A stretch of DNA of 64,000 bases from an uncultured Bacteroidales bacterium (GTDB taxonomy: Bacteria; Bacteroidota; Bacteroidia; Bacteroidales; UBA932). This document shows, one piece after another, positions 1,161-64,000 of this stretch (the first letter of the stretch is position 1; every line of letters starts with the position of its first letter). Location of the stretch: NCBI GenBank assembly GCA_900320545.1, contig ONSU01000002.1, positions 42,143 through 106,142 on the forward strand, read 5' to 3'. Below the pieces are notes generated by a model that saw nothing but the letters and a program-made list of their open reading frames with translations, was not told the DNA's origin and made no database searches. The position numbers and the translations under genes were made by a program.

Positions 1161-1250
1161 GGAGAAAAATGCAACGGAATCGATAGATTATTTAACTTAA
1201 ATAATTTATCTTGCATAATTCAAATAATATAATTACTTTTGCACAAAACA

Positions 1251-37708: not shown

Positions 37709-37726
37709 TGTGTGTCCGGACACACA
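37709..37726. promoter_or_regulatory. Perfect 18-bp palindrome TGTGTGTCCGGACACACA (operator candidate, site 1)
   Basis: Lies 19 nt upstream of the LamG gene ATG. Overlaps the CAAAGATA (reverse complement TATCTTTG) -7 box at 37725-37732. Confidence 0.6.
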
Positions 37727-40322: not shown

Positions 40323-40372
40323 ACGTAAAAAATCCATAATGTTCAATCCCGACAAATATACAAAAAAATAAT

Positions 40373-40388
40373 TGTGTGTCCGCACACA
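40373..40388. promoter_or_regulatory. Palindromic operator candidate, site 2 (TGTGTGTCCGCACACA)
   Basis: Lies between divergent -7 boxes CAAATATA (40353-40360, minus-strand gene) and TATCTTTG (40429-40436, plus-strand gene). Confidence 0.6.
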
Positions 40389-47993: not shown

Positions 47994-48959
47994 TCAGTCC
48001 TTGTAGGCGAATTCCGTAAGGACGGGATAATGGTCTGAAATATACAGAATGCCGTAATCCCGTTTGTCAACCGAATACGTAAGCGCCTTGAGCGGACCGC
48101 AGAAGAAAATGTGGTCGATCAGGGTGCCGTTATTCTTGCCGTAATCGTTACAGGTATTGACAGTGCGGAAACTGGACTTGGCCGCATCCTCCCGGGCATA
48201 CCCGAGCGGGAATTTAATCAGCTGCTGCAGTTCATCCGTCGAGGACGCGCAGTTGAAGTCGCCCGTCAGGATTACAGGATCCTTACAGGAAGATCCGATG
48301 GCCCCGCCGATGATGGCCGGCATCTGACTCAGATGAAGATTGCTCTCCATCATCCGCAGGGAAGCCGCATTCGGCGCATTCTTGTTGTTCTGGTAATGGG
48401 TGTTGAACAGCCATACCGTACGGCCGAGTTTCTCCTCGTCGGTCAGTTTGATCCAGGAGGTGCACAGGGGATGCGTCGTATGCCAGGAGCCGTAATCATT
48501 GACTTTGTTCTTCGCAGCCACCTGACCAGGCGTATCGCTGTGCCAGAATGTACCCTTCGAAGACAGGGTAAAACGGGACTTCTTGTAGAAAATCGTATTG
48601 GATGTCTCGCTGCCTGTCACCTGCAGGATATCTTTCCCGCTCTCACGGCCGATTCCGTACAAGGCATACTCGTCCTTTACTTTGGAAAGAATATATTCCG
48701 CCTGGACCTTCTCCACCTCCTGCATCCCGATGATGTCGGGCTTGCGGGTCAGGATGAATTTGCAAAGCGCGTCCTTTCGGTTGTCCCAGATATAATCCCC
48801 GTCGGTCGGCTCGGGATAACGGATGTTGAAAGTGCAGACGAGAAGATCCGCACTTTCAACAGGTTTCCCTCCCCCATTCTCCGGATCCTTGCGGCAACCG
48901 GGAAGAACGGCCAGGAGCGCCGCAAGCAAAATCGTGAAAATCCCTTTATTTGACGACAT
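47994..48959 (-). CDS. Endonuclease/exonuclease/phosphatase (EEP) family lipoprotein
   Basis: Lipobox LPGC. EEP motifs TFNIRY, IIGMQE, GDFN and SDHYPV. Confidence 0.8.
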   Translation of the reverse strand: MSSNKGIFTILLAALLAVLPGCRKDPENGGGKPVESADLLVCTFNIRYPEPTDGDYIWDNRKDALCKFILTRKPDIIGMQEVEKVQAEYILSKVKDEYALYGIGRESGKDILQVTGSETSNTIFYKKSRFTLSSKGTFWHSDTPGQVAAKNKVNDYGSWHTTHPLCTSWIKLTDEEKLGRTVWLFNTHYQNNKNAPNAASLRMMESNLHLSQMPAIIGGAIGSSCKDPVILTGDFNCASSTDELQQLIKFPLGYAREDAAKSSFRTVNTCNDYGKNNGTLIDHIFFCGPLKALTYSVDKRDYGILYISDHYPVLTEFAYKD

Positions 48960-50934: not shown

Positions 50935-50954
50935 ATCCTTGCAAATTTAACACT

Positions 50955-52772
50955 TTAGAAATTAAGTCCGTCATTCCATCCCGGATTCTGCAGCAGACGG
51001 GGGTTGAGCACTCGCTCGTCGGTCGGGATCGGATAGAGGTAATCCCGCTCGGGATCAAAGGTGAAGGTGTAGGTCGGACGCGGATTCACATACCCCTTAT
51101 TCCCGTCGGAAAGGGTGATGTCCGTGCCTATCTTGTACACAAACGTAGCCTGGGAAGAGGGTTTGGAACCGCTGTAGAGGCAGATGTCCGCCTTACCGTC
51201 CCGATCCCAGTCGTATTCTCCCGGCCCCGGGAAGTACATGCCATATAGACCCTTCCCGATCCGTTCGCCGGCGGCCCAGCGCAGCAGGTCGGCATAGCGG
51301 AATCCCTCCAGTGCCAGTTCCACGACCCGCTCGCGGCGGATCTCCAGAATCACCCCCTTGTTGACTCCGGACACATTGGGATAGCCGGTCTCCGGAGAGG
51401 TAAGGAAGGGATCCGGGGAGGCATTGGCCTCCGCGAGATTCATGTCGGGCATACCGGCCCGCAGGCGAAGCCGGTTGACGCTCTTGTTCAGATCCTGCTG
51501 GGTCAGCGTGCCGAGCTCGGCCTTCGCTTCGGCGAAATTCAGATATACTTCCGCCAGACGGATGACCGGCATATCGTTGTACGAGTAGTCCCGGACGTTG
51601 CTCATCACCAGATTGTCCGGCCGCATCACGAACTTGTTGACCGAATAACCGGTAAGCGAGCAATCCATATCGCAGAAGGACGCCCTGTTGGTCGATACGG
51701 TCGTGTAGGTATAGCCGGGAATCCGGATGGTCTGGTGCAGACGCGGATCCCTTCCCGCGACCTGGTCGGCAAAGGTCTTGGTGCTCCACCCCGGAACGGA
51801 GGAATAGCGCGACCCGTCGGCCATCAGGTAGTGGTCGATGAAATTCCGGGTGGGGCTTGTCCTTCCGCAGGCGGGCAGCAGCGCGGTCCCGGTGGCATTG
51901 TGGAAGAGTTTGTTGCTGTAATCGTAGTCGATGGCGAGAATATACTCTCCGGCATCCGCCGTGTACTGCGAGAACAGATTCTGATAGTCGTACTCCGGTT
52001 GACTCGTGGAATAGAGCGCATAGGGCCCCGTTGTCATCAGTTCCTCGGCCGCGGCCGCGGCGAGTTCAAGATAATAAGAGGCCGGCTGTGCGTCCGACGG
52101 AAGCGTCCAGAGCGTAATGTCGCCATCGTGATACTTGCGGTACGTACCTTCGAACAGGCAGAAACGGGACTTGAGGGCGAGAGCGGCCCATTTCGTAGCA
52201 CGGAAAGAACTACCCGACGAATAGGACTCGGGAAGGCCGGCTATGGCCTCGTCGATATCCTCGATCATATGCGACAGGACGACATCCCGGTTGTCGCGGG
52301 GATTGTAAAGGTCATCCTCGTCAGAAGAGAGTTCGTGGTCGATCCAGGGCACGTCGCCGAACCGCTGCAGCTTGTCGAAGTAGAACCAGGCGCGGAAGAA
52401 CTTGCACAGGGCGCTGTACTCCTTCCGGGTATCGGGGTTGTCGCAGCGGTAGAGATTGCCCAGGCAGGTGTTGATCTTGCGGAGCGTCGTCCACGACCAG
52501 CCGCCACCGGAGGAAGGAACCGTGCGGAAACTTCCGTTCAGCAGGAGGTTGCTGGGGTTGTTTCCGATCACGAGGTCGCTCTGCTCATCGTAGGGTGCAT
52601 CCGGAAGGAGGGAAGAGTAGAACGAATTGGTAAATATCTGCAGCTGGGTGGCATTCTGGAAATACGCCTCTTCGGTAATATCGTCCAGGGGGAACTTATC
52701 CAGCGCCTTTTCGCAAGACAGTCCCGAAAGAAGGGCCACGAGGGCAAGTGATATGCGGAAAATCTTTTTCAT
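50955..52772 (-). CDS. susD: SusD/RagB family nutrient-binding outer-membrane lipoprotein
   Basis: Lipobox LSGLSC. TPR-like SusD N-terminal pattern. Lies immediately downstream of the SusC-like gene. Confidence 0.9.
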   Translation of the reverse strand: MKKIFRISLALVALLSGLSCEKALDKFPLDDITEEAYFQNATQLQIFTNSFYSSLLPDAPYDEQSDLVIGNNPSNLLLNGSFRTVPSSGGGWSWTTLRKINTCLGNLYRCDNPDTRKEYSALCKFFRAWFYFDKLQRFGDVPWIDHELSSDEDDLYNPRDNRDVVLSHMIEDIDEAIAGLPESYSSGSSFRATKWAALALKSRFCLFEGTYRKYHDGDITLWTLPSDAQPASYYLELAAAAAEELMTTGPYALYSTSQPEYDYQNLFSQYTADAGEYILAIDYDYSNKLFHNATGTALLPACGRTSPTRNFIDHYLMADGSRYSSVPGWSTKTFADQVAGRDPRLHQTIRIPGYTYTTVSTNRASFCDMDCSLTGYSVNKFVMRPDNLVMSNVRDYSYNDMPVIRLAEVYLNFAEAKAELGTLTQQDLNKSVNRLRLRAGMPDMNLAEANASPDPFLTSPETGYPNVSGVNKGVILEIRRERVVELALEGFRYADLLRWAAGERIGKGLYGMYFPGPGEYDWDRDGKADICLYSGSKPSSQATFVYKIGTDITLSDGNKGYVNPRPTYTFTFDPERDYLYPIPTDERVLNPRLLQNPGWNDGLNF

Positions 52773-52784
52773 TGCGAAACGGTA

Positions 52785-55700
52785 TTAAAACTGGATATCC
52801 AGACCAAACATAAAACTTTTCTGCCAGGGATAGAACGAACGTCCCGTCGCTTCGGAGTCATCGTGCATGATTGCCTCCGGGTCGAGGAACGAGCTGTGCT
52901 TGAAAAGCGGAGACCAGCAGGCCAGGTTCTCCCCGGAGAAATATACCCTGATCTTCTCGATCCCGGCCTTTCTCGTCCATTTCTGCGGGACGGTGTAGCC
53001 CACCGTGAGATTCTTGAGGCGCAGATAGCGGCAGTTCTGGAGATAACGGGTATTGGTCCGGTTCAGATAGCCGCCGGAGATCTCCGCGATATATCCGCGG
53101 GCTCTCGGGAAGTAGGCGTCAGGGTTGTTATAGTCCCAGACATCATTCATAAAATCGCGCCGGATAAAGGACTGCATCGGATTGGAGTAAGGTCCCCAGA
53201 AGGGGAAATTGAACCGCGGCGGATACCACTGATGGTCGCCGGTTCCCTGGAAGAATGCGCTCACGTCGAATCCGAAATAATCCATTGAAACGGTGAAGCC
53301 GTAGGACAGGCGCGGCAGACTGTTGCCGACGATTCTGCGGTCGCCGGGGTCATCCACCGTATTGGCACCGACTCCGATGGCCCCGTCACCGTCGAGGTCT
53401 TCGTACTTGAGGTCGCCGGCCTTCCAGCCCGATCCCATGCCTGCCGTGATATAACTGAGGTCCACGGCGGCTGCATAATCCTGCGCCTCGATATCCGTCG
53501 CGAAAAGATCGTTCGCCTCGAAACCCCAGAGCTCCCCGAGATGTCGGCCCACATAGTAGTCGCTGATCAGTTTATTGGGGTTGTTGTCGTACTTGGTAAT
53601 GAACGAATCGTAGTTGCTGATATTGGCGGAGACGCCGTATCCGAAAGGATGGCCGCCCAGCTTGACCTGGTCCTTCCAGCTCAGGGAGAACTCGAAGCCG
53701 CGGGTCCTGAGGTTCGCCGTATTCTGTTTGGGGGCGGCGGCGCCATACACGGCGGGAAGGGCTGCACCCGACACCAGCATCCCCAGCGTATTGCGGATAT
53801 ACGCCTCGCCGGTAAACTGGAGACGGTCGTGGAAGAATCCCGCATCAAGGCCGACGTTGTACTGACGCACGGTCTCCCACGTCAGGTCTCCGGCATTCGG
53901 AGCCGAAATGGAGGCCGTCTTGGCCAGCGTCTCGCCGCCGAACATATAACTGGCATCATCGACCGACACCTTGCGGATGTAGGCGTAGTTGCTGACAACC
54001 TGATTGCCCAGGGAGCCGAAGGAGGCCCTCAGTTTGAGATTGCTCACATACCTCTTGGCAGGTGCGAAGAATGGCTCCTCACTGATCCTCCAGCCGGCCG
54101 ACGCCGAGGGGAAGAATCCCCAGCGGTGACCCTTTGCGAAGCGGGAAGAACCGTCGTAACGTCCCGAAATCTCAAACAGATAGCGGCCCTTGTAATCATA
54201 ATTGACGCGTCCGAAAAAGCCCAGGAGGGCATATTCGGTCTGCTCACCGTCGATATACTGCCTGGTGGCGCCGGTAATATCCGTACCGGCGAGGGAGAGA
54301 TCGTTGAGCGTATCGGAAACGAGATAGTATCCGATGGCCTCGAGATACTGCGTGTACTGCGTCTCGTAGTTTCCGCCTATGACGGCCGTCAGATGATGCG
54401 CGTCTTTGAACGTGTCTTCATAGGTGGCGAACACGTTGGCGGACATGTATCTGTAGGTCCGCGCCTTTTCATCGAGCTGGTTGGTTCCGACGCCGGTCGA
54501 GCGTACCTGCATCGGTTCGTCGGGATATTGCCTGTACTGGAGCTCGGTCTGGCGGGCGGTGGTATGGTTGCGCCGCCGGCGGAAGGTGAAATTACCGGTG
54601 AGCCTGAGCTGCCTGACGGGAGTGATGTTCAGTTCCGTCGTATTGGCGAAGTCGTATTTCCGCTCGATATGCCGGTCCGTATTCTCGGAAAACTTGACGT
54701 GCATTCCGTTTCCGACCGCATAACTGTTTACGAAGTACTGCGAATAGTACACCCACGACCCGTCCGGATTCTGAAGCGGAAAGCACGGAAGCGCGTGGGC
54801 CGTCAGCATGGAGATCGCCCGGTCCAGATTGCTCGTTCCCTGAGCCAGATAAGAATACTTCTGATCGTAGTAGGACGTGTTGTTGGAAATCGTGGCCCAC
54901 TTGGCGATACGGCCTTCGAACCGGGCGCGCAGCTGGTATTTATCCAGAATGTCCGGATGAATCTTGAGGATACCTTGCCGGCGGTCCCAGGTGCCCGAGA
55001 TGTAGTATTTGAAATTCTTGCCGCCGCCGCTGACGGAAAGGTTCTGCTGAAACACGGGATTGCGGTCGGAGAACAGGGTATGGTACCAGTCCGTGTTGCC
55101 GTAATACTTCCATTGACGCACCCCTCCGACCGTCTCCTCCACGACCCACGGGCGGTCGGGATGTTCCGTCACGTCATTCACGCGGGCGAGGAGTTCGTTC
55201 ATATCGTTGTCGTTGTACTTGAGGTATTTCTCTCCCGGATAGCGGGCCTCCCAGAAGGTATTGAGCGTATGTACGCTCCAGTAGCCCCGGGTCTCGAAGT
55301 CGGTGCTGGTGGTCGGAGACTGCCATCCGAACCGGCCGCTGTAGCGCACTGTCGCCTTTCCGTCCTCGTCCGTTCCGGCCTTCGTGGTCACCAGGATGAC
55401 GCCGAATGCCGCCCTGGCTCCGTAGATGGCCGCCGCCGATCCGTCCTTGATGACGGAAATGCTCTCCACGTCCTGGGGATTGACGCGGCTCAGGTCACCC
55501 TCCGCCCCGTCGACAAGCACCATCGGACCGGCTCCGTTGATGGATGTGTATCCGCGGATATTGATATCCGGGGATTCATTCATAATACCGGTGGAAGACG
55601 TGATGTTGAGACCGGGAACGGAACCCTGCAGCATACTGGTCACATCTCCGGAAGTACGGTTCTGGATATCATCCCCCTTCACGGCCGTGATGGCGCCCGT

Positions 55701-56060
55701 AAGGTTCACCTTCTTCTGGGTACCGTAACCCACGACCACCGTCTCCTCCAGCATCAGGTTGTCGGCTTCGAGAACGATGTCCGCCTGATTCTGCGATGCG
55801 GGAACAGTTATGGATGTGGAGGTATAGCCCAGGCAGGAGATATCCAGCCGGACATCCCCTTCACCCACTTGCAACGACCACGATCCGTCGATGTCGCTGA
55901 CCGTTCCTTTCGAGGTTCCGCTTACAATAACCCCCGCACCGGGGACACCTTCCCCGGAAGCATCCGTTACCCTGCCGGAAACCGTCCTCTGGGCAAACGC
56001 GGCGAACGCCGTGACAAGCAGGAGAATCGCTGCCGAGAGAATTTTTCTTGCTCCGTTCAT
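52785..56060 (-). CDS. susC: SusC/RagA family TonB-dependent outer-membrane transporter
   Basis: Carboxypeptidase-regulatory-like N-domain (GRVTDASGEGVPGAGVIV), TonB-box and plug (VVVGYGTQKK), 1091 aa, terminal F. No N-terminal anti-sigma signalling extension. Confidence 0.92.
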   Translation of the reverse strand: MNGARKILSAAILLLVTAFAAFAQRTVSGRVTDASGEGVPGAGVIVSGTSKGTVSDIDGSWSLQVGEGDVRLDISCLGYTSTSITVPASQNQADIVLEADNLMLEETVVVGYGTQKKVNLTGAITAVKGDDIQNRTSGDVTSMLQGSVPGLNITSSTGIMNESPDINIRGYTSINGAGPMVLVDGAEGDLSRVNPQDVESISVIKDGSAAAIYGARAAFGVILVTTKAGTDEDGKATVRYSGRFGWQSPTTSTDFETRGYWSVHTLNTFWEARYPGEKYLKYNDNDMNELLARVNDVTEHPDRPWVVEETVGGVRQWKYYGNTDWYHTLFSDRNPVFQQNLSVSGGGKNFKYYISGTWDRRQGILKIHPDILDKYQLRARFEGRIAKWATISNNTSYYDQKYSYLAQGTSNLDRAISMLTAHALPCFPLQNPDGSWVYYSQYFVNSYAVGNGMHVKFSENTDRHIERKYDFANTTELNITPVRQLRLTGNFTFRRRRNHTTARQTELQYRQYPDEPMQVRSTGVGTNQLDEKARTYRYMSANVFATYEDTFKDAHHLTAVIGGNYETQYTQYLEAIGYYLVSDTLNDLSLAGTDITGATRQYIDGEQTEYALLGFFGRVNYDYKGRYLFEISGRYDGSSRFAKGHRWGFFPSASAGWRISEEPFFAPAKRYVSNLKLRASFGSLGNQVVSNYAYIRKVSVDDASYMFGGETLAKTASISAPNAGDLTWETVRQYNVGLDAGFFHDRLQFTGEAYIRNTLGMLVSGAALPAVYGAAAPKQNTANLRTRGFEFSLSWKDQVKLGGHPFGYGVSANISNYDSFITKYDNNPNKLISDYYVGRHLGELWGFEANDLFATDIEAQDYAAAVDLSYITAGMGSGWKAGDLKYEDLDGDGAIGVGANTVDDPGDRRIVGNSLPRLSYGFTVSMDYFGFDVSAFFQGTGDHQWYPPRFNFPFWGPYSNPMQSFIRRDFMNDVWDYNNPDAYFPRARGYIAEISGGYLNRTNTRYLQNCRYLRLKNLTVGYTVPQKWTRKAGIEKIRVYFSGENLACWSPLFKHSSFLDPEAIMHDDSEATGRSFYPWQKSFMFGLDIQF

Positions 56061-56072
56061 ATCGTGGTCGCT

Positions 56073-56186
56073 TTAGAAATAAATCGTACCCTGGCCGTCG
56101 GCCGGAATGTCCTCCAGCTGACCATCATCCGCAGGAGTACATGCCATCAATGTCAAGAGAACAAATATAGCCAGGATTTTTTTCAT
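56073..56186 (-). CDS. Micro-lipoprotein of 37 aa (22-aa mature peptide CTPADDGQLEDIPADGQGTIYF), absent from the ORF track
   Basis: Hand translation gives MKKILAIFVLLTLMAC..., a canonical signal peptide with lipobox LMAC. The ATG lies 1 nt after the stop of the upstream gene. The stop lies 12 nt before the susC ATG. Confidence 0.5.
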   Translation of the reverse strand: MKKILAIFVLLTLMACTPADDGQLEDIPADGQGTIYF

Positions 56187-56187
56187 T

Positions 56188-57918
56188 TTACTGATAATCA
56201 AAAATCAATGTCGCCGTCACAGGCCAGTGGTCGGAGATGTAGGTCACGCCGGCATAGGGCCGGAAGTCGGTTCCGAAGCTGCCGGGGACAAGCCCGTGCT
56301 TGGCGTCTTCATAGCAGTAGCGGTAGATGATGTGGTCGAGATTGGAGCCGCCGCCGGAGACGGTACCGCTGCCGTATATGGAGGAGAATCCGGCACAACC
56401 TTCCGTGAAATTGTTGTAGCTGACAGGATAAGCCGTCTTGCTTGTCTTCCCGTCCACATTGCGGGCAAAGTAATAATCACCCCATCCCGTGTAACCCTTC
56501 TCCTCGCCCATCATATCCGATGCGGATTCGTTGAAATCACCGGTCACGATGACCGGAAGATGCCCGGTATTGATGGCTTCTATCTGGTTGTACAGGATTT
56601 CCGCCTCCTCCTTACGGGTGGCGTATGCTTCAGCTGTATAATGTGCTTCGAAGTGGGTGTTGAATACATAGAATACTTCTCCGGTAGCCTTGATGCGGAA
56701 CTTGATCCAGGCGCAGTTGCGCCCGCCGCCGGAACCGACACTGGCGGGATTGGAAGACAGCCAGAACGTTCCCTTGTCCAGGACATCGAACCTTGCGGTC
56801 TTGTAGAAGATGGCGTTGGAGGAGTCGGTGTTGTAGTCTTTCTTGTTCCAGAGGTAGCCGGTGGATCCGCTGGACTCCTTCCCGTATTCCACGCCAAGGC
56901 CATAGGCGGCGTAGCCTTCCGTATTGTCGAGGATGTTTACCCGCTGACGGTATTCGCATTCCTGCGTCCCGATGATGTCGGGCTCATTATCATTGAAGAA
57001 AGCATAGATTCCCGACCTGCGTACGCTCCAATAGTGGCTGCTGCTCCAGTCGCTGTTGTCATCGTTGCTCTGGCAGGCGACATTGAAGGACCACACCTGG
57101 AGCGAGGCGCGGGCGGCGGGCATCGTAGTCTCCATCGTAGTCTGGGCCGACCGGGTAATGGTGAACGGCTCCGTAAGACTCTTGGAACTGATGCTTCCGT
57201 CCGGGAGGACAGCACTCACGGTAAGGCTCGAATAAGATCCGGCAGGAATGACCACGATAAACTCCTTGGCAGAAGAGGTACTCAACTGCTGGGCGGAACT
57301 GCAATTGACCGCAACGGTCTTGTAGCTGTCCGCCGAACCGGTAATTGTCAGGGTGTTACCGCCACGGGAAACGGTCCCGGGACCCGTGACCGCCTTGTCG
57401 AAAGTGAGCTCGAGGCGCGAAACCTTGATGCTTCCCTTCAGGCGCAGCTTCAGGACCCCGCAGAGATTCTTCATCGTAAAATTTCCGAAAGAACTGCTGG
57501 TCCCGGAGAGCATCGGATTGCTGCCGGGAGCAAATGTCCCCGCGGTATAATCCACCTCGGAAGGGAGCGTGAAAGTAAATGTACTGCCGCCATTGTATGT
57601 CGCCGTAGAAGGATATACAACGAAATAGTTCTCACTGCCGGTATATTGGGGCCTGACGCCGCTGAAGGTGCCGCTGCCGGTTCCTGCTCCGCCAGTCAGA
57701 GTAAATGTATTTCCGGCTCCGTTACCCTGCGCAAAAACTTTGATTTCGTCCCCTGAAGACCAGAGCACACTGGTCCCGGAAAGACTGGTCTTAACCGCTC
57801 CCTCTTGACCGACGGTAATTTCGGTCAAGAGAGCCTCCGGCTCCGCCTGTTCGAATTTACTGCACGCCGCGAGCACGGCAAGGCCTGCTATGATAATTAG
57901 TAGAATCCTTCTGCACAT
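56188..57918 (-). CDS. Lipoprotein with N-terminal beta-sandwich domain shared with the giant lipoproteins, plus a C-terminal EEP phosphoesterase domain
   Basis: Lipobox LAAC. N-terminal pattern LWSSGDEIKVF ... NLCGVLKLRL. C-terminal EEP motifs SFNVA, IIGTQECE, VTGDFN and SDHWPV. Confidence 0.75.
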   Translation of the reverse strand: MCRRILLIIIAGLAVLAACSKFEQAEPEALLTEITVGQEGAVKTSLSGTSVLWSSGDEIKVFAQGNGAGNTFTLTGGAGTGSGTFSGVRPQYTGSENYFVVYPSTATYNGGSTFTFTLPSEVDYTAGTFAPGSNPMLSGTSSSFGNFTMKNLCGVLKLRLKGSIKVSRLELTFDKAVTGPGTVSRGGNTLTITGSADSYKTVAVNCSSAQQLSTSSAKEFIVVIPAGSYSSLTVSAVLPDGSISSKSLTEPFTITRSAQTTMETTMPAARASLQVWSFNVACQSNDDNSDWSSSHYWSVRRSGIYAFFNDNEPDIIGTQECEYRQRVNILDNTEGYAAYGLGVEYGKESSGSTGYLWNKKDYNTDSSNAIFYKTARFDVLDKGTFWLSSNPASVGSGGGRNCAWIKFRIKATGEVFYVFNTHFEAHYTAEAYATRKEEAEILYNQIEAINTGHLPVIVTGDFNESASDMMGEEKGYTGWGDYYFARNVDGKTSKTAYPVSYNNFTEGCAGFSSIYGSGTVSGGGSNLDHIIYRYCYEDAKHGLVPGSFGTDFRPYAGVTYISDHWPVTATLIFDYQ

Positions 57919-57929
57919 AGTATTCTATG

Positions 57930-60900
57930 TTATTCCATTCCTACGGAAATATTCTCAGGTGTTCCCTCATCACTAATGGCCGTCACGGTAACGGTGATGT
58001 CGGAAAGGTGAATAACCGGTTTCCGGCTGTCGCTGGCTGAACCATCATCGTAGGTTGGCTTGGAGAAGTTTGTTTTCGCAGGTCCGAAGATAATCCGGTC
58101 TCCGGCTTTTATCTTCAAGGTCCTGGAGACTGTCTCCCAGGTCTCACCATCATTTTTATTGAAGGTGATGCGCCGGACGTGGTCGCCTTCCGCTCCGTCA
58201 TCCTGCCAGCTGAAATCCGCCTTGTTGCCGGAAACAGCGGCTCCAGCCTGAGTGATGGCGCCAAGCGCCCATTCGCCCTTGTTTGCACCATAAGAAGGAG
58301 ATGCGGTAATGGTAACTTCGACCGTCGCCACCTTTCCGGCGGCAATCGGGAATTCAGGTGTCAGGAGCCAGCCTAAACAACTGTCATATTTACTGCCATC
58401 GGCAAGTCTGGTTCCTATCTGGACATAACCTGGACGAACCCATATTGCTCCATAATTCGGCTTTGCGGCATTTATACAACTGGTGTTGCCGACGGCGTCC
58501 CATGCCCAGTTCGCAAGCCGGCTTCCGGGCAAGGCTCCCGTCTGACGGAAGAGCGACCACCATCTGCATAGCTGTACTGACTCATAAGGATCACTGTTGT
58601 CAAGAGTTTGGTTGCTGAAGGAAGATCCGGAGTCGGGATCGATACCCACCGCATCCGAATTGTAATCCGAATTCCAGCAGAGTTCGCTGAAGTCCTCGGC
58701 AAAAGCGAGTCCTGTTTCGGAGATACTCGAAGGCATCGTCTTGACAGTGAATGGCTTGGTCCTGGCAATGACAGCTGTGGATGTCTGGGAATCTCCGTCG
58801 CTTACCTTTATATAATATGTCGTATCCGGACTGAGTCCCGCAAAGACAAATCGCGGGGAGTGAGAAGTACTCCAATAGGATGCGTTGGCAGCGAAACTGA
58901 AGGAACGGACCGGCGTCCCACTGCATTCCGCATTGTCATAGAGGAAAGCCGTATAGGATTTTGTAATATCATCCTCAACGGAAGTACCTTCCGTCCATTC
59001 GACCGTTATGGTGGAAGAACTTGTTTCCCTGACTGTCACCCGGACAGGATCGTTCTCAATGGAAGTAACCTCGACCTTGATGTCGCTGATGAACACACGC
59101 CCCTTGGAACTTGATGATCCCTCTGCGGCGCCGAAGGCGATGCGGTCTCCAGGAAGGATGGTCAAGCCCTCAGCGGTGACGGTCGTCCACTCCGTCCCGA
59201 GCGCGACGGTCTGATACTTGTCCGGGGTGTTTTCTTCAGGCCAGCTGAAATTCGCCGCATAGCCGCTCACGTTAGCTTCTATGGCGTTGAGAACGGCGAT
59301 GCCCCAGCTGTCCTCCTGACTGGAGTTATACTTCGCTGCGGTGACGGTCACATTGACTATGGCCTTCTTTCCGCCCGGCACCGTAAACTGCGGTGTCAGT
59401 ATCCAGCCCTTGCCGCTGGCGGTACCCATCTTGAGGTAACCGCAGTGGTAATAGACATTGCTGTCATAAGCCCACCCTGCAAGGCGGCTGGAGGCAAGCG
59501 GAGCCGTGGTGGACATCTTGACCTCTCCGGAATTGCTGTTGCCGGCGACATAATTCTTGACATCCGTGGAGGAGAAAGAGGAGGTCGTGTTGGGAACGTA
59601 CCCGGCCGCACCGGCGAGCATATCCGACTGCCAGCGGAGTTCCCCGAAGTCCTCGGCAAGAGCGACGCCCGTCGAAGTAATGGACGAAGGCATCTGCACG
59701 ACGGTAAAGGCTTCCGTAGTGGCGGAAACGATGTTGGAGACCACGCCGTCCGTCGTATCCGTCACCTTCAGATAATAGGTCGTAGCCGGGGTAAGTCCGC
59801 CGAATACGTATTTCGGCTGTGCACTCCTCCAGCAAGCGTCCCCCGCGGGGATATCGAAGGAAGCGACCGGCACCGTGCAGGCGTCATCGCTATAAAGAGC
59901 CGCCGTGAAAGCGTGGGAAGGATCGCCGCTCCAGGTAAACGGCAGGGTCGAAGAGGTCGCCCCTTCGGCGGGATAGGCAAAGAGCGACGAAGCCGACAGC
60001 GCCTTGACATCCACCGAGATATCATCGAAGAGTACACGGGCCTTGCTGTTCGAACCTCCTTTTGTGCGTCCGAATGCTATCCTGTTGCCCCTCTGTATCC
60101 GCAGACCCCGCACGGTCACGGTCTCCCAGGGAGATGTGTTCTCCTTGGTCTTTGTAGTGGAGACGACCCTGTAGAGAGAGACATCAGTTATATCCGGCCA
60201 GGTGAAGTCAGACTGACGGCCACCCTTGTCTCCGTCCTCGCTGATCACGCAGACCATAAAGTCATCGGACTGGTCCGCATTATATTTGGTGAAGCTTACG
60301 GTAACATCCGCATACGCAGATTTGCCTTCCTCTATCGGGAATGTGGGCGTAAGGGCAAAACCGTAAGAGCTGCTCGTTCCCAGCTTCAGATATCCGGGGT
60401 GAATGTAAACCTTGCCCTCGGACAGCCAGCCGGCAAGGCGGCTGTTGGCGATAGCCGTGGAGAAATTACCGGTGCCGCGGAAGTCCTTCTCGTCCGGATT
60501 GATCGTGGCTCCGGACAGGGAATGATTGGAGAAACTGCTCTGGTTGGAAGGAAGATATCCCACGCCGTTCTTCACATACTCCGTTCCCCAGGCGAACTCG
60601 CCGAAGTCCTCGGCATAGACCACCCCGGCGGCGGTAATGTCCGAAGTGGGCATCTGGACTACCGTAAACGCCTTGGTGCTCTCCTGTACCGGGTCGCTCA
60701 ACGCGCCGGCCGTAGGGTCTTCCACCTTGAACCAATAGTCTGTCCCGGGAGCAAGACCGCCGATGACAAAACGGAGGGCTTCGCCGACTTTCCACTCGGC
60801 GGACGCAGGAAGGTCGTAAGATTCATATTCGGACGTGCACCCGCTGTCGGTATAGACGTGAACTTTCCAAGGCTTCTTCGTATCGCTGGCGGGATTGGAG

Positions 60901-61778
60901 CCGGTCCAGCGGATCGTGATGGCGGAAGAATTGACGGCCCAGTGGCCGGTAATCGCGACCGCTGACGGCACATACGCCGGAGCCGTGATCGGATACAGCG
61001 TTCCCGCCGCGGCGTTGAAGGCCGACGTGCGGGAGAAGGCCATGGAAGTACCGTCAGACGCACTGATAACAAAGCGGAGGCCGCCGGCATAATTCTGCGC
61101 CGGGATGGCCAGGGTAACCGGGGTTCCGAACGGAAGGCCGCCCGAGGGGGCCTCAATCTCGACATAATTGTTTTCGCCGCCCGAGAGGGAAGAGAAGTCG
61201 GTCGTAAAGACGCCGCTCATCTTCTCCGTGCCCAGGGCCTCCAGTTTGATGGAAGTGATATTGAGCGTACCCTCGGCCGGGGCGGTCGGGGTAATCTTGA
61301 AGAGCGACATCATCGGGTTGAAACTCAGTGAGGGGGAGTTGCCGCTTCCGAGCATGATGTAAGCGGCGGGGTCGTGCTGCCCGGCCACATAAGCCTGTTG
61401 CGAGGGAATCGTAACCGTCGCCGCTCCGGAGGCATATCCGGAAATCGCCGAAGCCGGAGAAGCTGAATAATACGGAACCGTCAACTCGCCCGTAACGGAG
61501 AACTGGGCATAATTGGTACCGACATAGCCGTCGCCATCTTCCAGGGCTACGCTTGAGATGCCGTTGACACTGATGACGTCGCCCGCCTGCCAGAGAGTCG
61601 GATAGCCGTCCTCACCCTTCTCTCCAAGGCAAACCTTGGTCTCGGGGAGGGAGGCCTTGAAGACGACAGTCTTGATTTCTCCGGAAGTATTCTCCGGGAG
61701 ATCCTGCTCTTTGGCGCAGGAAAATGCAAGGACAAGAATGCCTGCAAGCAAAAGAATCTTTTTCATTGTCGTCTTCAT
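57930..61778 (-). CDS. Giant surface lipoprotein: N-terminal beta-sandwich domain plus 3 x (Fn3 + unknown AEDFGE-W module)
   Basis: Lipobox AFSC followed by acidic residues. Three collinear internal repeats of about 310-375 aa at about 59997-60968, 59061-59996 and 57933-59060. Start placed at 61778 (MKTTMKKILLL), 2 nt after the small ORF stop. Confidence 0.8.
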   Translation of the reverse strand: MKTTMKKILLLAGILVLAFSCAKEQDLPENTSGEIKTVVFKASLPETKVCLGEKGEDGYPTLWQAGDVISVNGISSVALEDGDGYVGTNYAQFSVTGELTVPYYSASPASAISGYASGAATVTIPSQQAYVAGQHDPAAYIMLGSGNSPSLSFNPMMSLFKITPTAPAEGTLNITSIKLEALGTEKMSGVFTTDFSSLSGGENNYVEIEAPSGGLPFGTPVTLAIPAQNYAGGLRFVISASDGTSMAFSRTSAFNAAAGTLYPITAPAYVPSAVAITGHWAVNSSAITIRWTGSNPASDTKKPWKVHVYTDSGCTSEYESYDLPASAEWKVGEALRFVIGGLAPGTDYWFKVEDPTAGALSDPVQESTKAFTVVQMPTSDITAAGVVYAEDFGEFAWGTEYVKNGVGYLPSNQSSFSNHSLSGATINPDEKDFRGTGNFSTAIANSRLAGWLSEGKVYIHPGYLKLGTSSSYGFALTPTFPIEEGKSAYADVTVSFTKYNADQSDDFMVCVISEDGDKGGRQSDFTWPDITDVSLYRVVSTTKTKENTSPWETVTVRGLRIQRGNRIAFGRTKGGSNSKARVLFDDISVDVKALSASSLFAYPAEGATSSTLPFTWSGDPSHAFTAALYSDDACTVPVASFDIPAGDACWRSAQPKYVFGGLTPATTYYLKVTDTTDGVVSNIVSATTEAFTVVQMPSSITSTGVALAEDFGELRWQSDMLAGAAGYVPNTTSSFSSTDVKNYVAGNSNSGEVKMSTTAPLASSRLAGWAYDSNVYYHCGYLKMGTASGKGWILTPQFTVPGGKKAIVNVTVTAAKYNSSQEDSWGIAVLNAIEANVSGYAANFSWPEENTPDKYQTVALGTEWTTVTAEGLTILPGDRIAFGAAEGSSSSKGRVFISDIKVEVTSIENDPVRVTVRETSSSTITVEWTEGTSVEDDITKSYTAFLYDNAECSGTPVRSFSFAANASYWSTSHSPRFVFAGLSPDTTYYIKVSDGDSQTSTAVIARTKPFTVKTMPSSISETGLAFAEDFSELCWNSDYNSDAVGIDPDSGSSFSNQTLDNSDPYESVQLCRWWSLFRQTGALPGSRLANWAWDAVGNTSCINAAKPNYGAIWVRPGYVQIGTRLADGSKYDSCLGWLLTPEFPIAAGKVATVEVTITASPSYGANKGEWALGAITQAGAAVSGNKADFSWQDDGAEGDHVRRITFNKNDGETWETVSRTLKIKAGDRIIFGPAKTNFSKPTYDDGSASDSRKPVIHLSDITVTVTAISDEGTPENISVGME
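59375..59582. repeat. Left arm of a 208-bp inverted repeat, inside repeat unit 2 of the giant lipoprotein gene
   Basis: Hand alignment of the reverse complement against 63490-63697 gives 195/208 identical with no gaps. The single 21-nt flank I compared (59583-59603 vs 63469-63489) is 13/21 identical. Confidence 0.8.
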
Positions 61779-61780
61779 TT

Positions 61781-61936
61781 TTAGTTGAACCATTCGTCTT
61801 CGCCGGGGTCTCCTTCCCCGACATTGCCCAGCTGCCCGCTTTCCAGGAAGTTCTCCTCGGGATCGAGAAAGATCAGCTCTGCTTCGGGGCTGCTGTAGGA
61901 AGCGAAAGCCTTCATTTCAAGTGTTTTTTGTATCAT
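61781..61936 (-). CDS. Conserved small ORF A (51 aa), immediately upstream of the giant lipoprotein gene
   Basis: MIQKTLEMKAFASYSSPEAELIFLDPEENFLESGQLGNVGEGDPGEDEWFN. Same length as ORF B, with 14/51 identities and no gaps. No signal peptide. Confidence 0.4.
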   Translation of the reverse strand: MIQKTLEMKAFASYSSPEAELIFLDPEENFLESGQLGNVGEGDPGEDEWFN

Positions 61937-61959
61937 AATCCTATAACATTTTCTAAATA

Positions 61960-61975
61960 GTGTGTGCGGACACAC
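61960..61975. promoter_or_regulatory. Palindromic operator candidate, site 3 (GTGTGTGCGGACACAC)
   Basis: Contains the reverse complement of TGTGTCCGCACACA at 61961-61974. Lies between the minus-strand -7 box and the small ORF A start. Confidence 0.6.
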
Positions 61976-61999
61976 TCTAACAAATCCAACATTATGATG

Positions 62000-62007
62000 C
62001 AAATATA
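62000..62007 (-). promoter_or_regulatory. -7 promoter box (TATATTTG on the minus strand) for the small ORF A / giant lipoprotein unit
   Basis: CAAATATA on the + strand matches the reverse complement of TAnnTTTG. Confidence 0.5.
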
Positions 62008-62028
62008 TATATTTTTTTTGTTTTTAAC

Positions 62029-62042
62029 TGTGTGCGGACACA
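62029..62042. promoter_or_regulatory. Palindromic operator candidate, site 4 (TGTGTGCGGACACA), central site between divergent promoters
   Basis: Exact reverse complement of the 14-mer at 40375-40388. Lies 21 bp from the minus-strand -7 box and 18 bp from the plus-strand -7 box. Confidence 0.6.
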
Positions 62043-62060
62043 TTTTCCGGAATTAATTTT

Positions 62061-62068
62061 TATATTTG
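62061..62068 (+). promoter_or_regulatory. -7 promoter box TATATTTG for the small ORF B / paralogous lipoprotein unit
   Basis: Matches the TAnnTTTG consensus. Confidence 0.5.
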
Positions 62069-62098
62069 CATCCGGATGGAGACATTTTCGACCAGGTC

Positions 62099-62112
62099 TG
62101 TGTCCGCGCACA
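62099..62112. promoter_or_regulatory. Palindromic operator candidate, site 5 (TGTGTCCGCGCACA)
   Basis: One mismatch from the 14-mer consensus. Lies in the predicted 5' UTR, 30 nt upstream of the small ORF B ATG. Confidence 0.55.
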
Positions 62113-62141
62113 TATATTAAAGGTATAAATACCCAGACGAT

Positions 62142-62297
62142 ATGAACAGTTTAAAAACAATCACTCCGGCCCATCGGTATTACACCGTGCCTGAGATCAG
62201 AATCAAGCCCCTGACGATTCAAAAGGGCTTATGTATCAGCGGCGGGCTCTCCCCCATCGAAGAGGAAGATGCCGGCATAGACAATTGGGGAGAATAA
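62142..62297 (+). CDS. Conserved small ORF B (51 aa), immediately upstream of the paralogous lipoprotein gene; absent from the ORF track
   Basis: Hand translation gives MNSLKTITPAHRYYTVPEIRIKPLTIQKGLCISGGLSPIEEEDAGIDNWGE. The stop lies 4 nt before the ATG at 62302. Confidence 0.4.
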   Translation: MNSLKTITPAHRYYTVPEIRIKPLTIQKGLCISGGLSPIEEEDAGIDNWGE

Positions 62298-62301
62298 AAT
62301 T

Positions 62302-64000
62302 ATGAAAAAGTCAGTATTATTCACACTGTGTGCAGCCGCCGTCCTGGCGGGCTGCAAGTCGGAGTTGCCGGAAGGGCCGGAAGTTCCGGGCGCGAAAACA
62401 GTCAAGGCCATCCTGACAGAAACCAAATCCTACCTCGGCGACAAGGACGGGACCTCGTATCCCAACTATTGGGCAGAGGGCGATGTCATCAACCTCAACG
62501 GGACGGCATCCTCTCCGCTCGACGCCTCCTACAACGGCAAGAGCGAGGCCGAGTTCACCTTCGCATCCGCCGCGGCACCCTACAAGGCTGTCTATCCGGC
62601 TTCGAGCGTCACCGCCTACGCCGACGGCATCGCATCCATCCTGCTCCCGGCAGAGCAGACCTATGTTGCAGGGTCCTACGACCCGGCAGCGTTTATAATG
62701 ACCGCAAAGTCGGAGGCAGACGCCACCCTTACCTTCGCCCCGGCACTTTGCATCCTCAAATTCGTCATAGACGGAACGGACAACACCAAGAGTATCAAAC
62801 TCTCCGCCGATGACGGGAAGAAACTTTCCGGAGCCTTCACGACCGATTTTTCCACCTTTGCGGCAGCGGAAGGCGCCTCCTCAGAAGTGACCATCCAGAT
62901 GCCCGAAGGCGGTGTCGCTCCCGGGACGCCCATTATGCTGGCCGTCCCGGCAGGTGACTACAGCGGCGGTCTCACTGCGGAATTCACGGATGCGAACGGC
63001 GGGGTCATGACCCTTCACGCCACGCCTTCAAAGGTTTACGAAGCCGGCAAGATGTACGCGACGGAGGTGACGGAGCCGGTTCCCTCGCTGACGGCAGCCG
63101 AAGTATCCGGAAGCACATCCTCCACATTGGTATTCAACTGGGACGGCGACAAGACCCATGCTTTCACCGTCACGCTGTATAGCAATGCCGCCTGCTCCGC
63201 GGAAGTCGCTTCCTTCGACATTCCCGCCGGGGACGCATGCTGGAACAGGACCCTGCCCACCTATGTTTTCGGAGGGCTCACGCCGGGCACGAAATATTGG
63301 TTCAAAGTGACCGACACGACAGACAGTATCGAGTCCAACGTGGTGGAAGCCACCACCGCCTCCTTCGACATCGTGCAGATGCCTGCATCGATCAACGCGA
63401 CGGGTGTCGTCCTCGCCGAAGATTTCGGTGAAATTCGCTGGCAGGGAGACATGCTGGCAAATGCTTCCGGATTTATCCCCAATACCACATCCTCTTTCTC
63501 CTCCACGGATGTCAAGAATTATGTCGCTGGCAACAGCAACTCCGGAGAGGTCAAGATGACCACCACGGCTCCGCTTGCCTCCAGCCGCCTTGCAGGATGG
63601 GCTTACGACAGCAATGTCTATTACCACTGCGGATACCTCAAGATGGGAACTTCCAGCGGCAAGGGCTGGATCCTGACGCCTCAGTTTACGGTTCCGGAAG
63701 GCTACAAGGCCATCGTCAAGGTGACCGTCACGGCGGCAAGATACAACTCCAGCCAGGACGAGAACTGGGCCGTTGCCGTCCTCAACGAGGAACTGGCCAA
63801 GGTCAGCGGCTATGCAGCGAATTTCAGCTGGCCGGGAGAAGAAACCAAATACCAGCTTGTCGGCCCGCTCGCCACTTCGTGGACGACCGTCAGCGCGGAG
63901 GGGCTTGAAGTCCTTCCCGGAGACCGCATCACCTTCGGTCCCAAGAACGGAGCCGACAAGGCCAAGTCCCGCGTATTTATCGGAGACATCAAGGTAGAAG
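62302..64000 (+). CDS. Paralogous giant surface lipoprotein, 5' part (runs off the window end); absent from the ORF track
   Basis: Hand translation in the frame of 62302 is open to position 63999: MKKSVLFTLCAAAVLAGCKSELPEG... The N-terminal domain is roughly 40% identical by eye to that of the 57930-61778 product. It is followed by an Fn3 + AEDFGEIRW module (from about 63076) ending ...SRVFIGDIKVE. Confidence 0.85.
   Translation, partial: MKKSVLFTLCAAAVLAGCKSELPEGPEVPGAKTVKAILTETKSYLGDKDGTSYPNYWAEGDVINLNGTASSPLDASYNGKSEAEFTFASAAAPYKAVYPASSVTAYADGIASILLPAEQTYVAGSYDPAAFIMTAKSEADATLTFAPALCILKFVIDGTDNTKSIKLSADDGKKLSGAFTTDFSTFAAAEGASSEVTIQMPEGGVAPGTPIMLAVPAGDYSGGLTAEFTDANGGVMTLHATPSKVYEAGKMYATEVTEPVPSLTAAEVSGSTSSTLVFNWDGDKTHAFTVTLYSNAACSAEVASFDIPAGDACWNRTLPTYVFGGLTPGTKYWFKVTDTTDSIESNVVEATTASFDIVQMPASINATGVVLAEDFGEIRWQGDMLANASGFIPNTTSSFSSTDVKNYVAGNSNSGEVKMTTTAPLASSRLAGWAYDSNVYYHCGYLKMGTSSGKGWILTPQFTVPEGYKAIVKVTVTAARYNSSQDENWAVAVLNEELAKVSGYAANFSWPGEETKYQLVGPLATSWTTVSAEGLEVLPGDRITFGPKNGADKAKSRVFIGDIKVE
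63490..63697. repeat. Right arm of the 208-bp inverted repeat
   Basis: See the left arm at 59375-59582. The shared sequence encodes SSFSSTDVKNYVAGNSNSGEVKM.TTAPLASSRLAGWAYDSNVYYHCGYLKMGT.SGKGWILTPQFTVP. Confidence 0.8.

Follow-up and report, generated by a model that had tools for sequence, protein, structure and literature searches.

ORF A and ORF B, two small open reading frames that diverge from a shared intergenic region, are very probably old paralogues of an undescribed protein family, each locked into a fixed two-gene cassette with the lipoprotein gene that follows it on the same mRNA, with the two products made together and the amino-acid sequence of the small protein's core under selection. 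As to function, we tentatively propose that the peptide may be a cytoplasmic partner acting in trans on the precursor of its cognate lipoprotein. Nutrient capture in Bacteroidota is the work of surface lipoproteins, whose production and export are only partly understood; a conserved small protein without a signal peptide that has stayed fixed ahead of certain lipoprotein genes, despite duplications and rearrangements, points to a so far unrecognised step in making these very large lipoproteins, for which a dedicated cytoplasmic helper and peptide-based translational control are the candidates. The locus also adds a clean, selection-supported case to the poorly charted small proteins of uncultured gut and rumen bacteria, in a family that looks rare and is therefore of uncertain general importance.

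Two small coding genes and their family

Both frames consist of an ATG, 50 codons and a TAA. An earlier note on this DNA had pointed to their equal length of 51 codons and to 14 identities in 51 positions; recomputing the gap-free alignment returned exactly the same positions (shuffle p <= 5e-5), with at least 14 identities in only 0.005% of 20000 shuffles of B and the BLOSUM62 score of 40 never attained. Pairwise BLASTP of A against B gives E = 1e-5, while reciprocal tblastn with the window (the whole stretch of 64,000 nucleotides that was analysed) as search space gives E = 0.011-0.037, a level at which two chance matches inside ordinary genes score equally well. The tblastn matches of B at 26184-26279 and 24026-24142, considered as extra paralogues in the window, were dismissed as chance, lying within genes for a cytochrome-b-type membrane protein and an aminotransferase. 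The A/B similarity by itself is only suggestive, and it is the orthologues that settle the question.

Orthologues of A, 61-100% identical and mostly 51 aa long, and B-type orthologues (in loci L002, L006, L007, L008, L009, L019 and L020) come from other rumen and gut Bacteroidales. Their frames are intact, with 51 aa kept in 12/12 orthologues of both types recovered from fetched DNA and in 13/13 members of the B cluster. Overall dN/dS is about 0.1-0.3 (0.05-0.29 in comparisons of ORF A, 0.05-0.6 for ORF B), and between the window and L002 or L008 a pS of 0.72-0.79 stands beside a pN of 0.26; in the C-terminal half the excess of synonymous change is strong, at pS 0.82 against pN 0.09. Among strains, SNPs are synonymous in the C-terminal half and conservative in the N-terminal half, and indels are confined to spacers or leader, outside both frames. 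We take ORF A and ORF B to be genuine conserved coding genes and infer their translation from this selection.

That the sequence of the peptide is irrelevant, the frame being a mere coupling spacer or a remnant of duplicated upstream DNA left open by chance, is the least probable of the readings we weighed. Fifty codons do remain open in about 9-10% of shuffled sequences of the same composition, and the A/B similarity is weak in the whole-window search; against this stand the synonymous excess across species, eight columns invariant across the A and B types, exact conservation of length, and recovery of family members at E values down to 1e-24 in a search of 1.8 billion representatives. The version in which an upstream ORF encodes an unimportant peptide is ruled out by dN/dS and the orthologues.

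Profile searches assembled a small family of 43-57 aa with the common core Y-x2-P...L...S-G-x-L...E-x-D-x-G-x-D-x-W. The core spans about 36 residues, comprising Y14-x2-P17, a hydrophobic, strand-like stretch at 19-32, S33-G34-x-L36 and the acidic E41-x-D43-x-G45-x-D47-x-W49, and there is strong reason to infer that selection targets its amino-acid sequence. Conservation is strongest over the last ~20 aa, where the acidic cluster E41-x-D43-x-G45 shows little or no variation, although Y14, P17 and L24, distant from the C-terminus, are invariant as well; the first ~13 aa, which are hydrophilic, are free to vary in sequence and length. The number of residues after the tryptophan varies by 1-4, and one subfamily lacks the tryptophan. 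In all, billions of proteins yielded only a few dozen clusters of the family, every one from Bacteroidales of the rumen or gut, and a metagenome scan with alignment A1 found only 4 loci. Searches of Pfam, NCBIfam, PHROGs and PDB sequences returned no match for A, B or 19 family members, and a literature search for small ORFs preceding lipoprotein or PUL genes of Bacteroidales (PUL, polysaccharide-utilization-type locus) found nothing relevant. At least one copy, that at 16897..16742 of L020, had been overlooked by the source's gene caller, and the others are unnamed or called "hypothetical protein". This family of ~50-aa acidic proteins without a signal peptide is very probably undescribed.

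Some apparent relatives were discarded: Kelch-repeat proteins are false positives owing to their VEEYDPxTDxW repeat, the 515-aa protein grouped into the P0014 cluster proved to be PurH, a clustering artefact, and descent of the small ORF from a lipoprotein N-terminus received an hhalign probability of 0.2%.

The ORF A product carries a net charge of -10.5 and that of ORF B one of -2.4, with -7 and -5, respectively, in their C-terminal halves, in keeping with the acidic C-termini described earlier. The absence of signal peptides, also claimed then, is confirmed: neither protein has a hydrophobic segment, the Kyte-Doolittle maximum over 11 residues being only 0.5 (A) and 1.3 (B), and in a lipobox test the cysteine of B (GLC-I) has no preceding hydrophobic region and A lacks that cysteine. 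AlphaFold2, given a 19-row alignment, modelled the peptide as an extended chain devoid of secondary structure (pLDDT 68, pTM 0.2). A tryptic peptide of the ORF B product is GLCISGGLSPIEEEDAGIDNWGE. An exported or modified peptide (a RiPP, a bacteriocin precursor or a signalling peptide), with the N-terminal part as leader and the acidic C-terminal part as product, is very improbable. Y-x-x-P and S-G (G-G in B) before the C-terminal segment loosely resemble known leader-peptide motifs and the peptide is predicted to be unstructured, but the A-type has G-Q instead of G-G, a signal peptide and any match to a Pfam or NCBIfam precursor family are missing, and none of some 15 loci encodes a maturase, a peptidase-containing ABC transporter or a radical-SAM protein.

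The cassette and its transcriptional setting

The features of the locus are collected in Table 1.

Table 1. Positions, within the window, of the two small genes, their partner genes and the signals between them
Feature	Position	Strand	Remarks
ORF A, 51 aa, acidic, A-type family member	61936..61781	minus	product MIQKTLEMKAFASYSSPEAELIFLDPEENFLESGQLGNVGEGDPGEDEWFN
ORF B, 51 aa, B-type member, old paralogue of A (27% identical)	62142..62297	plus	product MNSLKTITPAHRYYTVPEIRIKPLTIQKGLCISGGLSPIEEEDAGIDNWGE
Spacer, ORF A TAA to first ATG of lipoprotein A, 2 nt	61779..61780	minus	1-nt deletion variant in other strains
Spacer, ORF B TAA to lipoprotein B ATG, 4 nt	62298..62301	plus	1-nt deletion variant exists
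Lipoprotein A, 1282 aa; signal peptide and lipobox MKKILLLAGILVLAFSC; conserved N-domain	57930..61778	minus	
Lipoprotein B, start MKKSVLFTLCAAAVLAGC...; continues past window edge	62302..64000	plus	L007 orthologue 917 aa
Rest of ORF A operon, PUL-type: EEP lipoprotein, tiny lipoprotein, SusC, SusD, BACON protein, second EEP gene (EEP, endonuclease/exonuclease/phosphatase)	47994..57918	minus	
Bacteroidetes-type -7 box TATATTTG, ORF A operon	62000..62007	minus	invariant in four aligned loci; read from sequence
Bacteroidetes-type -7 box TATATTTG, ORF B operon	62061..62068	plus	read from sequence
Palindrome TGTGTGCGGACACA, 5' leader of ORF A, likely LacI-type operator	61961..61974		
Central palindrome TGTGTGCGGACACA, between both promoters	62029..62042		
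Palindrome TGTGTCCGCGCACA, 5' leader of ORF B	62099..62112		

A homologous lipoprotein gene lies directly downstream in nearly all members of the family: in 25/26 distinct copies a reading frame whose product has a lipoprotein signal peptide begins -4 to +14 nt after the small ORF, and the downstream lipoproteins of those copies have the same N-terminal domain. In most A-type cassettes the ATG comes 1-2 nt after the stop. The stop-to-ATG gaps of 2-4 nt reported earlier for the window were recovered (2 nt for A, 4 nt for B), with the qualification that the first ATG of lipoprotein A reads MKTTMKKILLL... and that its canonical MKK start lies 14 nt past the ORF A stop. Pairing is type-specific, an A-type ORF always preceding a lipoA-type gene and a B-type ORF a lipoB-type gene, and even inside one operon every lipoprotein paralogue has retained a small ORF of its own, with copies sitting mid-operon, between two lipoprotein genes, in L002, L008, L010, L012, L014, L016, L018 and L019. 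In L005 an intact copy comes last, ahead of a terminator, with no lipoprotein gene behind it; this orphan is known from a single 902-nt contig, and a recent deletion is possible. Paralogous lipoproteins that have the same N-domain without a small ORF of their own occur in L010 (4532) and L012 (1403).

The metatranscriptome contig X26 rec12 covers 61743-61983 on the ORF A side, and contigs X25 rec6 (62154-62639) and X27 rec15 (62218-62367) cross the junction between ORF B and its lipoprotein gene; each small ORF is thus joined to its lipoprotein gene by junction-spanning contigs, which indicates co-transcription. The arrangement of the A and B cassettes relative to each other is divergent in the window, L006 and L007, tandem in L002, L008 and L019, and convergent in L020. 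The persistence of the cassette in three layouts and its co-transcription, together with the 51-codon orthologues, the synonymous excess and the placement of indels, support the earlier note in its view that these are translated, conserved peptides, not decayed non-coding DNA. Two of the outcomes by which that note would have been refuted, disrupted frames in orthologous loci and a missing synonymous excess, were checked for and did not arise.

The spacing of -4 to +14 nt on one mRNA means that ribosomes ending the small ORF can restart on the lipoprotein gene; Bacteroidota largely lack Shine-Dalgarno initiation. Fusion of the small ORF to the lipoprotein by programmed frameshift or read-through was rejected, since across cassettes the ATG occurs in all three relative frames and the signal peptide would be buried. 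RNAalifold detected no convincing conserved RNA structure at the junctions of A-type or B-type cassettes (consensus -2.8 to -10 kcal/mol, covariation term ~0), and single-sequence z-scores there, mostly -1.6 to +1 and about -0.5, gave no convincing start-hiding hairpin. Nor does the region look like a transcription-attenuation leader, with no terminator-like site found within 61700-62400 and many copies lying mid-operon.

The client lipoproteins combine their common N-terminal domain with differing C-terminal domains (FN3/nuclease-like, GDSL or GLUG); lipoprotein A has FN3 matches in at least two places and two stretches that match a surface-endonuclease model. Across the N-terminal regions the two adjacent lipoproteins are 38% identical, close to the roughly 40% estimated earlier by eye. 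A PDB profile search with 15 lipoprotein N-domains gave no match, comparison of the N-domain with Pfam Mfa_like_1 stayed below threshold (E = 0.007), and a structure prediction from a 2-row alignment (pLDDT 46) was too poor for a fold search.

Both operons have a -7 box of the Bacteroidetes type (consensus TAnnTTTG). A neighbouring LacI-family regulator, whose gene adjoins the locus in L001, L006 and L007, probably uses the palindromes between A and B as its operators; the "unknown palindrome-binding factor" of the earlier note is most likely a LacI-family repressor with its gene adjacent in close relatives. Bound by such a repressor, the three palindromes would place both cassettes under a separate, transcriptional control. 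The peptide itself might then act at this level, for example as an acidic anti-repressor that titrates the palindrome-bound repressor and closes a positive feedback loop, and the acidity of the peptide, the adjacent LacI gene and the position of the A-type ORF as first gene after the palindrome-bearing promoter (in the window, L001, L006, L007 and L020) would all suit it. We consider such a regulator improbable: the mid-operon copies listed above lie far from promoters, a shared regulator would not need two or three diverged paralogues per locus, and the small ORF goes with the lipoprotein N-domain rather than with the palindromes or the LacI gene.

Action in trans or in cis

Of the roles considered, we lean towards action in trans on the cognate lipoprotein precursor. 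The peptide would be released to the cytoplasm without a fold of its own and act on its own cassette partner, its strand-forming middle binding the new precursor at the signal peptide or the conserved N-terminal domain, and its acidic, Trp-containing tail contacting the export machinery or holding the very long precursor export-competent. It would in effect be a small dedicated escort or holdase, produced just before and beside its client. We favour action in trans because (i) Y14, P17 and L24 are invariant though far from the C-terminus; (ii) the tail after W varies in length and one subfamily does without W; (iii) the L005 copy is intact with no lipoprotein gene following; (iv) the junction has no conserved RNA switch; and (v) the extended chain predicted by AlphaFold2 fits a peptide that folds only on its partner.

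Some observations weigh against an escort. Lipoproteins with the same N-domain that manage without a small ORF exist, as in L010 and L012; the L005 orphan, on its single short contig, could reflect a recent deletion; and the conservation of the last ~20 residues, the MifM-like acidic cluster and the strict upstream position fit a peptide acting in cis equally well. A cytoplasmic escort of 50 aa for lipoproteins exported by Sec would, as far as we know, be without precedent. Taken as a whole, a coding cassette family with an escort acting in trans is the best explanation we can offer, and we offer it tentatively.

Nearly as likely, though doubtful, is a nascent peptide acting in cis, whose conserved acidic C-terminal part would slow or stall the ribosome from within the tunnel a few codons before the stop and so set the restart on the lipoprotein ATG 1-14 nt further on. 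Strict upstream adjacency in 25/26 copies and an own copy for every lipoprotein paralogue would be expected of it, as would an ATG straight after the stop in most A-type cassettes, the conservation peak over the last ~20 aa behind a variable beginning, a fixed core of ~36 aa that equals the tunnel length, and the lack of an autonomous fold. The B-type EEDAG equals the stall site of MifM, DEED(86-89)-A90-G91 (PMC4423224), and runs of D/E with interspersed Pro are hard to translate (10.1101/2021.02.02.429294). Several features of the family sit poorly with cis action: the stretch between the acidic cluster or W and the stop differs by 1-4 codons among members, W is missing from one subfamily, Y14 and P17 are invariant at a distance from the C-terminus, the L005 orphan copy has stayed intact, and the downstream start is not hidden by a conserved hairpin. 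A filled tunnel is, moreover, reported to counteract destabilisation by acidic runs. An N-terminal membrane or signal segment to sense force, as in MifM, SecM and VemP, is lacking, and the arrest peptides known to us precede biogenesis factors or enzymes, never cargo proteins.

A MifM-like form of the idea, and an unlikely one, is that a Bacteroidota regulatory nascent peptide gates termination and reinitiation onto a surface-lipoprotein gene through an acidic stall near the end of a 51-codon ORF. Were it true, every cassette would meter the translation of its own giant lipoprotein, and the peptide would be, to our knowledge, the first arrest peptide described in Bacteroidota and the first on cargo genes rather than a biogenesis factor.

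Comparison with known systems

The cassettes share features with several known systems and coincide with none of the following.

(i) Arrest peptides such as MifM of Bacillus subtilis, SecM, VemP, TnaC and CliM likewise come from a small ORF that immediately precedes the gene to be controlled and likewise have their most conserved residues in the C-terminal ~20. The stall residues R69, I70, W73, I74, M80 and N81 of MifM have no counterpart in the small-protein family, whose members lack both the N-terminal membrane or secretion segment and the start-sequestering hairpin, and here, in the phylum Bacteroidota, the downstream gene encodes a cargo lipoprotein and not a biogenesis factor.

(ii) Coupled upstream ORFs and leader peptides also place stop and start within a few nucleotides on one mRNA. 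In ordinary coupling and attenuation leaders the peptide is conserved only in a few regulatory codons, whereas here purifying selection on the amino acids is strong; unlike attenuation leaders, these ORFs also occur mid-operon and have no terminator/antiterminator pair.

(iii) Export chaperones, namely SecB, the class I chaperones of type III secretion and Tat chaperones such as TorD, are likewise acidic and cytoplasmic, have genes next to that of a specific exported client and are expressed together with it, and form paralogue pairs with paralogous clients. They are folded proteins of 130-200 aa, in contrast to the ~50 aa, predicted unstructured, of the proteins described here, with which they share no sequence or structural similarity.

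(iv) Sda and MciZ of Bacillus, cytoplasmic regulators of 40-60 aa that bind and inhibit a larger protein, are similar in size and not homologous; they are single-copy regulators, whereas the proteins described here belong to repeated cassettes with cargo genes.

Coding status of ORF A and ORF B

ORF A and ORF B, the two 51-codon frames lying directly ahead of the divergent lipoprotein genes lipoA and lipoB, share 14 of their 51 residues in an ungapped alignment, at exactly the positions listed in an earlier note, which had taken the pair for conserved, translated peptides. As many identities were reached in 0.005% of 20000 shuffles of ORF B, and the BLOSUM62 score never; however, the reciprocal tblastn matches against the whole window have E = 0.01-0.04 only, and two matches within ordinary window genes score equally well, so that the pairwise similarity is suggestive, not decisive. 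A 50-codon open frame occurs in ~10% of shuffled sequences of the same composition. The stop codon is followed by an ATG after 2 nt in ORF A (MKTTMKKILLLAGILVLAFSC) and after 4 nt in ORF B (MKKSVLFTLCAAAVLAGC). Neither peptide has a hydrophobic segment, and net charge (-10.5 for A, -2.4 for B) is concentrated in the C-terminal halves.

Coordinates of features in the window and in relatives' loci (L handles)
Feature	Locus	Position	Strand	Structure
ORF A	window	61936..61781	minus	ATG + 50 codons + TAA
ORF B	window	62142..62297	plus	ATG + 50 codons + TAA
Uncalled B-type ORF	L020	16897..16742	minus	
Divergent small ORFs	L010	2824-3021		
	L018	1843-1989		
	L014	1121-1252		
B-type junctions	window	62286-62330		
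	L002	2213-2260		
	L008	1213-1260		
	L009			
	L020			
Palindrome TGTGNSCGSNCACA	window	37711-37724, 40375-40388, 61961, 62029, 62099		
LacI-family gene	L001	4760-5848		
	L006, L007	about 750-1823		
PUL	window	39417-61778	minus	
Type I phosphodiesterase gene	window	39417-40385		
Tiny lipoprotein ORF	window	56073-56201	minus	
	L001	11700-11858		
	L002	11693-11824		
	L020	12786-12938		

Public protein searches returned 15 A-type clusters (orthologous to ORF A; 61-100% identity) and 2 B-type clusters, and fetched DNA yielded further copies of both types. Frame disruption was looked for, and the A-type and B-type orthologues taken from DNA are all intact at exactly 51 codons, as are 13/13 members of the B cluster (51 aa). 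Nei-Gojobori comparison of the window with L002 or L008 gives pS 0.72-0.79 and pN 0.26; the synonymous excess proposed as a check is most marked at codons 28-51 (pS 0.82, pN 0.09), with pN ~0.4 at codons 1-27. These counts indicate strong purifying selection on the small ORFs, and since synonymous change in the C-terminal half has reached saturation, it is the peptide that is conserved, not an RNA or DNA element. Among strain variants in rumen metagenomes and metatranscriptomes, indels are confined to the spacers separating stop and ATG (61778, 62298) and to the B leader (62119); SNPs in the C-halves are silent, and those in the N-halves cause conservative replacements. Metatranscriptome contigs, of low coverage, strandless and with one library ambiguously labelled, run from ORF B into lipoB (62154-62639 and 62218-62367) or span the whole of ORF A and the lipoA start (61743-61983); because they cross the junctions, small ORFs and lipoprotein genes share the same RNA. 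Orthologue length, pN/pS and indel placement thus bear out the note's main inference: both ORFs are very probably translated genes, and the data exclude non-coding DNA as well as an upstream ORF whose peptide sequence is irrelevant.

A small-protein family in lipoprotein cassettes

A profile of both types, run against 1.84 billion representative proteins, gave 21 matches at E <= 1e-3, of which ~15 are proteins of 48-57 aa and the remainder Kelch-repeat false positives; about ten further small proteins came from a word-seeded profile search. The common core comprises Y14-x2-P17, a strand-like hydrophobic stretch, L24, S33-G34-x-L36 and an acidic tail, E41-x-D43-x-G45-x-D47-x-W49, with a constant distance of 27 residues from the Y to the acidic cluster (one copy, in which 2 residues are inserted, is the exception). 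Members have N-terminal extensions of 6 to 16 residues and a tail of 1 to 4 residues after the W; one subfamily lacks the W and ends ...EEDLF. Searches of Pfam, NCBIfam, PHROGs and PDB sequences gave no match for any member; the source name, where given, is 'hypothetical protein', and the origin is without exception rumen or gut metagenomes or Bacteroidales MAGs. AlphaFold2, given a 19-row alignment, models the peptide as an extended chain devoid of secondary structure (pLDDT 68, pTM 0.2).

Fetched loci hold up to two small ORFs each. In three of them, more divergent copies (C-termini ...EEDLF or ...IVWVE) stand ahead of additional lipoprotein genes of the same operons; the family is broader than a strict-threshold profile detects. 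A perfectly conserved B-type ORF in a 178-nt gap of L020 is uncalled in the source annotation, so gene callers miss some members. A 515-aa PurH (AICAR transformylase, P0063) in the 90%-identity cluster of the 51-aa protein P0014 is a clustering artefact, not a fusion.

The synteny with lipoprotein genes that the note suggested checking is near-universal: a lipoprotein-type ORF (signal peptide + Cys; lipobox by pattern, or by eye where the pattern was too strict) lies -4 to +14 nt downstream of 25/26 distinct members read from DNA. Common to these lipoproteins is the N-terminal domain C-x3-8-PE...LPETK-x-LG-x-K-x-G...W-x2-GD-x-I, which resembles Pfam Mfa_like_1 below threshold only; their C-terminal parts differ (FN3 and a nuclease-like module in the window, GDSL-like in L010 and L018, GLUG in L012 and L014). 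The A and B cassettes, each a small ORF with its lipoprotein gene, point away from each other in the window, L006 and L007, follow one another within a single operon in L002, L008 and L019 (lipo - B - lipoB - A - lipoA - EEP, the last an endonuclease/exonuclease/phosphatase gene) and converge in L020; A-type ORFs always precede lipoA-type genes and B-type ORFs lipoB-type genes. Varied layouts with constant pairing argue that small ORF and lipoprotein gene moved and duplicated as one unit, and that promoter adjacency is dispensable for the small ORF. Two paralogous lipoproteins (L010 4532, L012 1403) lack a small ORF, and the small ORF of L005 is the final gene ahead of a terminator and tRNA genes.

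At the B-type junctions, G-rich W-G-E codons (UGGGGGGA) can pair with pyrimidine-rich signal-peptide codons 5-8 (CUCCUUCU), which would loop out the stop and the lipoprotein ATG. Given a consensus energy of only -2.8 kcal/mol and absent covariation, this pairing may be incidental.

Promoters, a probable LacI-type regulator and the PUL

Between ORF A and ORF B lie 205 bp with two Bacteroidetes-type -7 boxes (TATATTTG) and the palindrome in triplicate, once within either 5' leader and once between the promoters; relatives have kept all of these elements. The window has five copies against 0 expected; of the outlying two, one adjoins a Laminin_G_3/ATPase gene pair and the other falls at the start of the type I phosphodiesterase gene. 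The five sites suggest a single LacI-type regulon reaching beyond the A/B promoters. A LacI-family gene (LacI HTH + Peripla_BP_4) adjoins the cassette in L001, L006 and L007, in the latter two convergent with lipoB (917 aa in L007), so the palindrome-binding factor postulated in the note is most likely a LacI-family repressor encoded beside the locus; the window's own copy would fall just past its 64000 end. That the peptide itself serves as a LacI anti-repressor is very improbable.

ORF A is first in a PUL-type operon, followed by lipoA, an EEP lipoprotein, a tiny lipoprotein, SusC, SusD, a BACON protein and a second EEP gene. The tiny lipoprotein ORF (42-50 aa; signal peptide + Cys, then ...QLE[DS]IP-x-DGQ-x-[VI]-x-F) is conserved between the EEP lipoprotein gene and SusC and overlaps the EEP gene end by 14 nt. 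With two EEP-family nuclease/phosphatase genes, a lipoprotein module weakly matching a T9SS surface endonuclease model, and type I phosphodiesterase and metallo-beta-lactamase-fold genes nearby, the PUL may act on a phosphodiester polymer (nucleic acid or phosphoglycan) instead of a plain polysaccharide.

Candidate roles of the peptide

Many copies are mid-operon and the A/B locus has no terminator, which makes a promoter-proximal attenuation leader unlikely; a RiPP or bacteriocin precursor is unlikely too, since maturation genes were found in none of the loci. That leaves two models. We consider it possible, if tentatively, that the peptide is a trans-acting partner of its cognate lipoprotein precursor: the invariant residues are distant from the C-terminus, the tail after W varies, the orphan copy in L005 is intact, the ORF/lipoprotein junction lacks an RNA switch and the peptide seemingly folds only with a partner, although no precedent is known for such a role. 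A nascent peptide working in cis is only slightly less probable; it would accord with strict adjacency (one small ORF per lipoprotein gene), conservation centred on the ~20 C-terminal residues and a core that roughly matches the exit tunnel in length. The B-type acidic cluster also reads EEDAG, as does the multisite stall sequence of MifM, DEED-A-G, to which it is identical (PMC4423224), and translation is known to be difficult through acidic runs in which Pro is interspersed (10.1101/2021.02.02.429294). Against this model, the N-terminus has no force-sensing part, a sequestering hairpin is absent and the geometry relative to the stop is variable. Whichever model applies, stop and start lie so close together, or overlap, that coupling by termination and reinitiation is likely.

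The narrow distribution tempers the family's importance. This small-protein family, in a fixed cassette with surface-lipoprotein genes, is previously undescribed; the nearest known kinds are coupled upstream small ORFs and small partner proteins.
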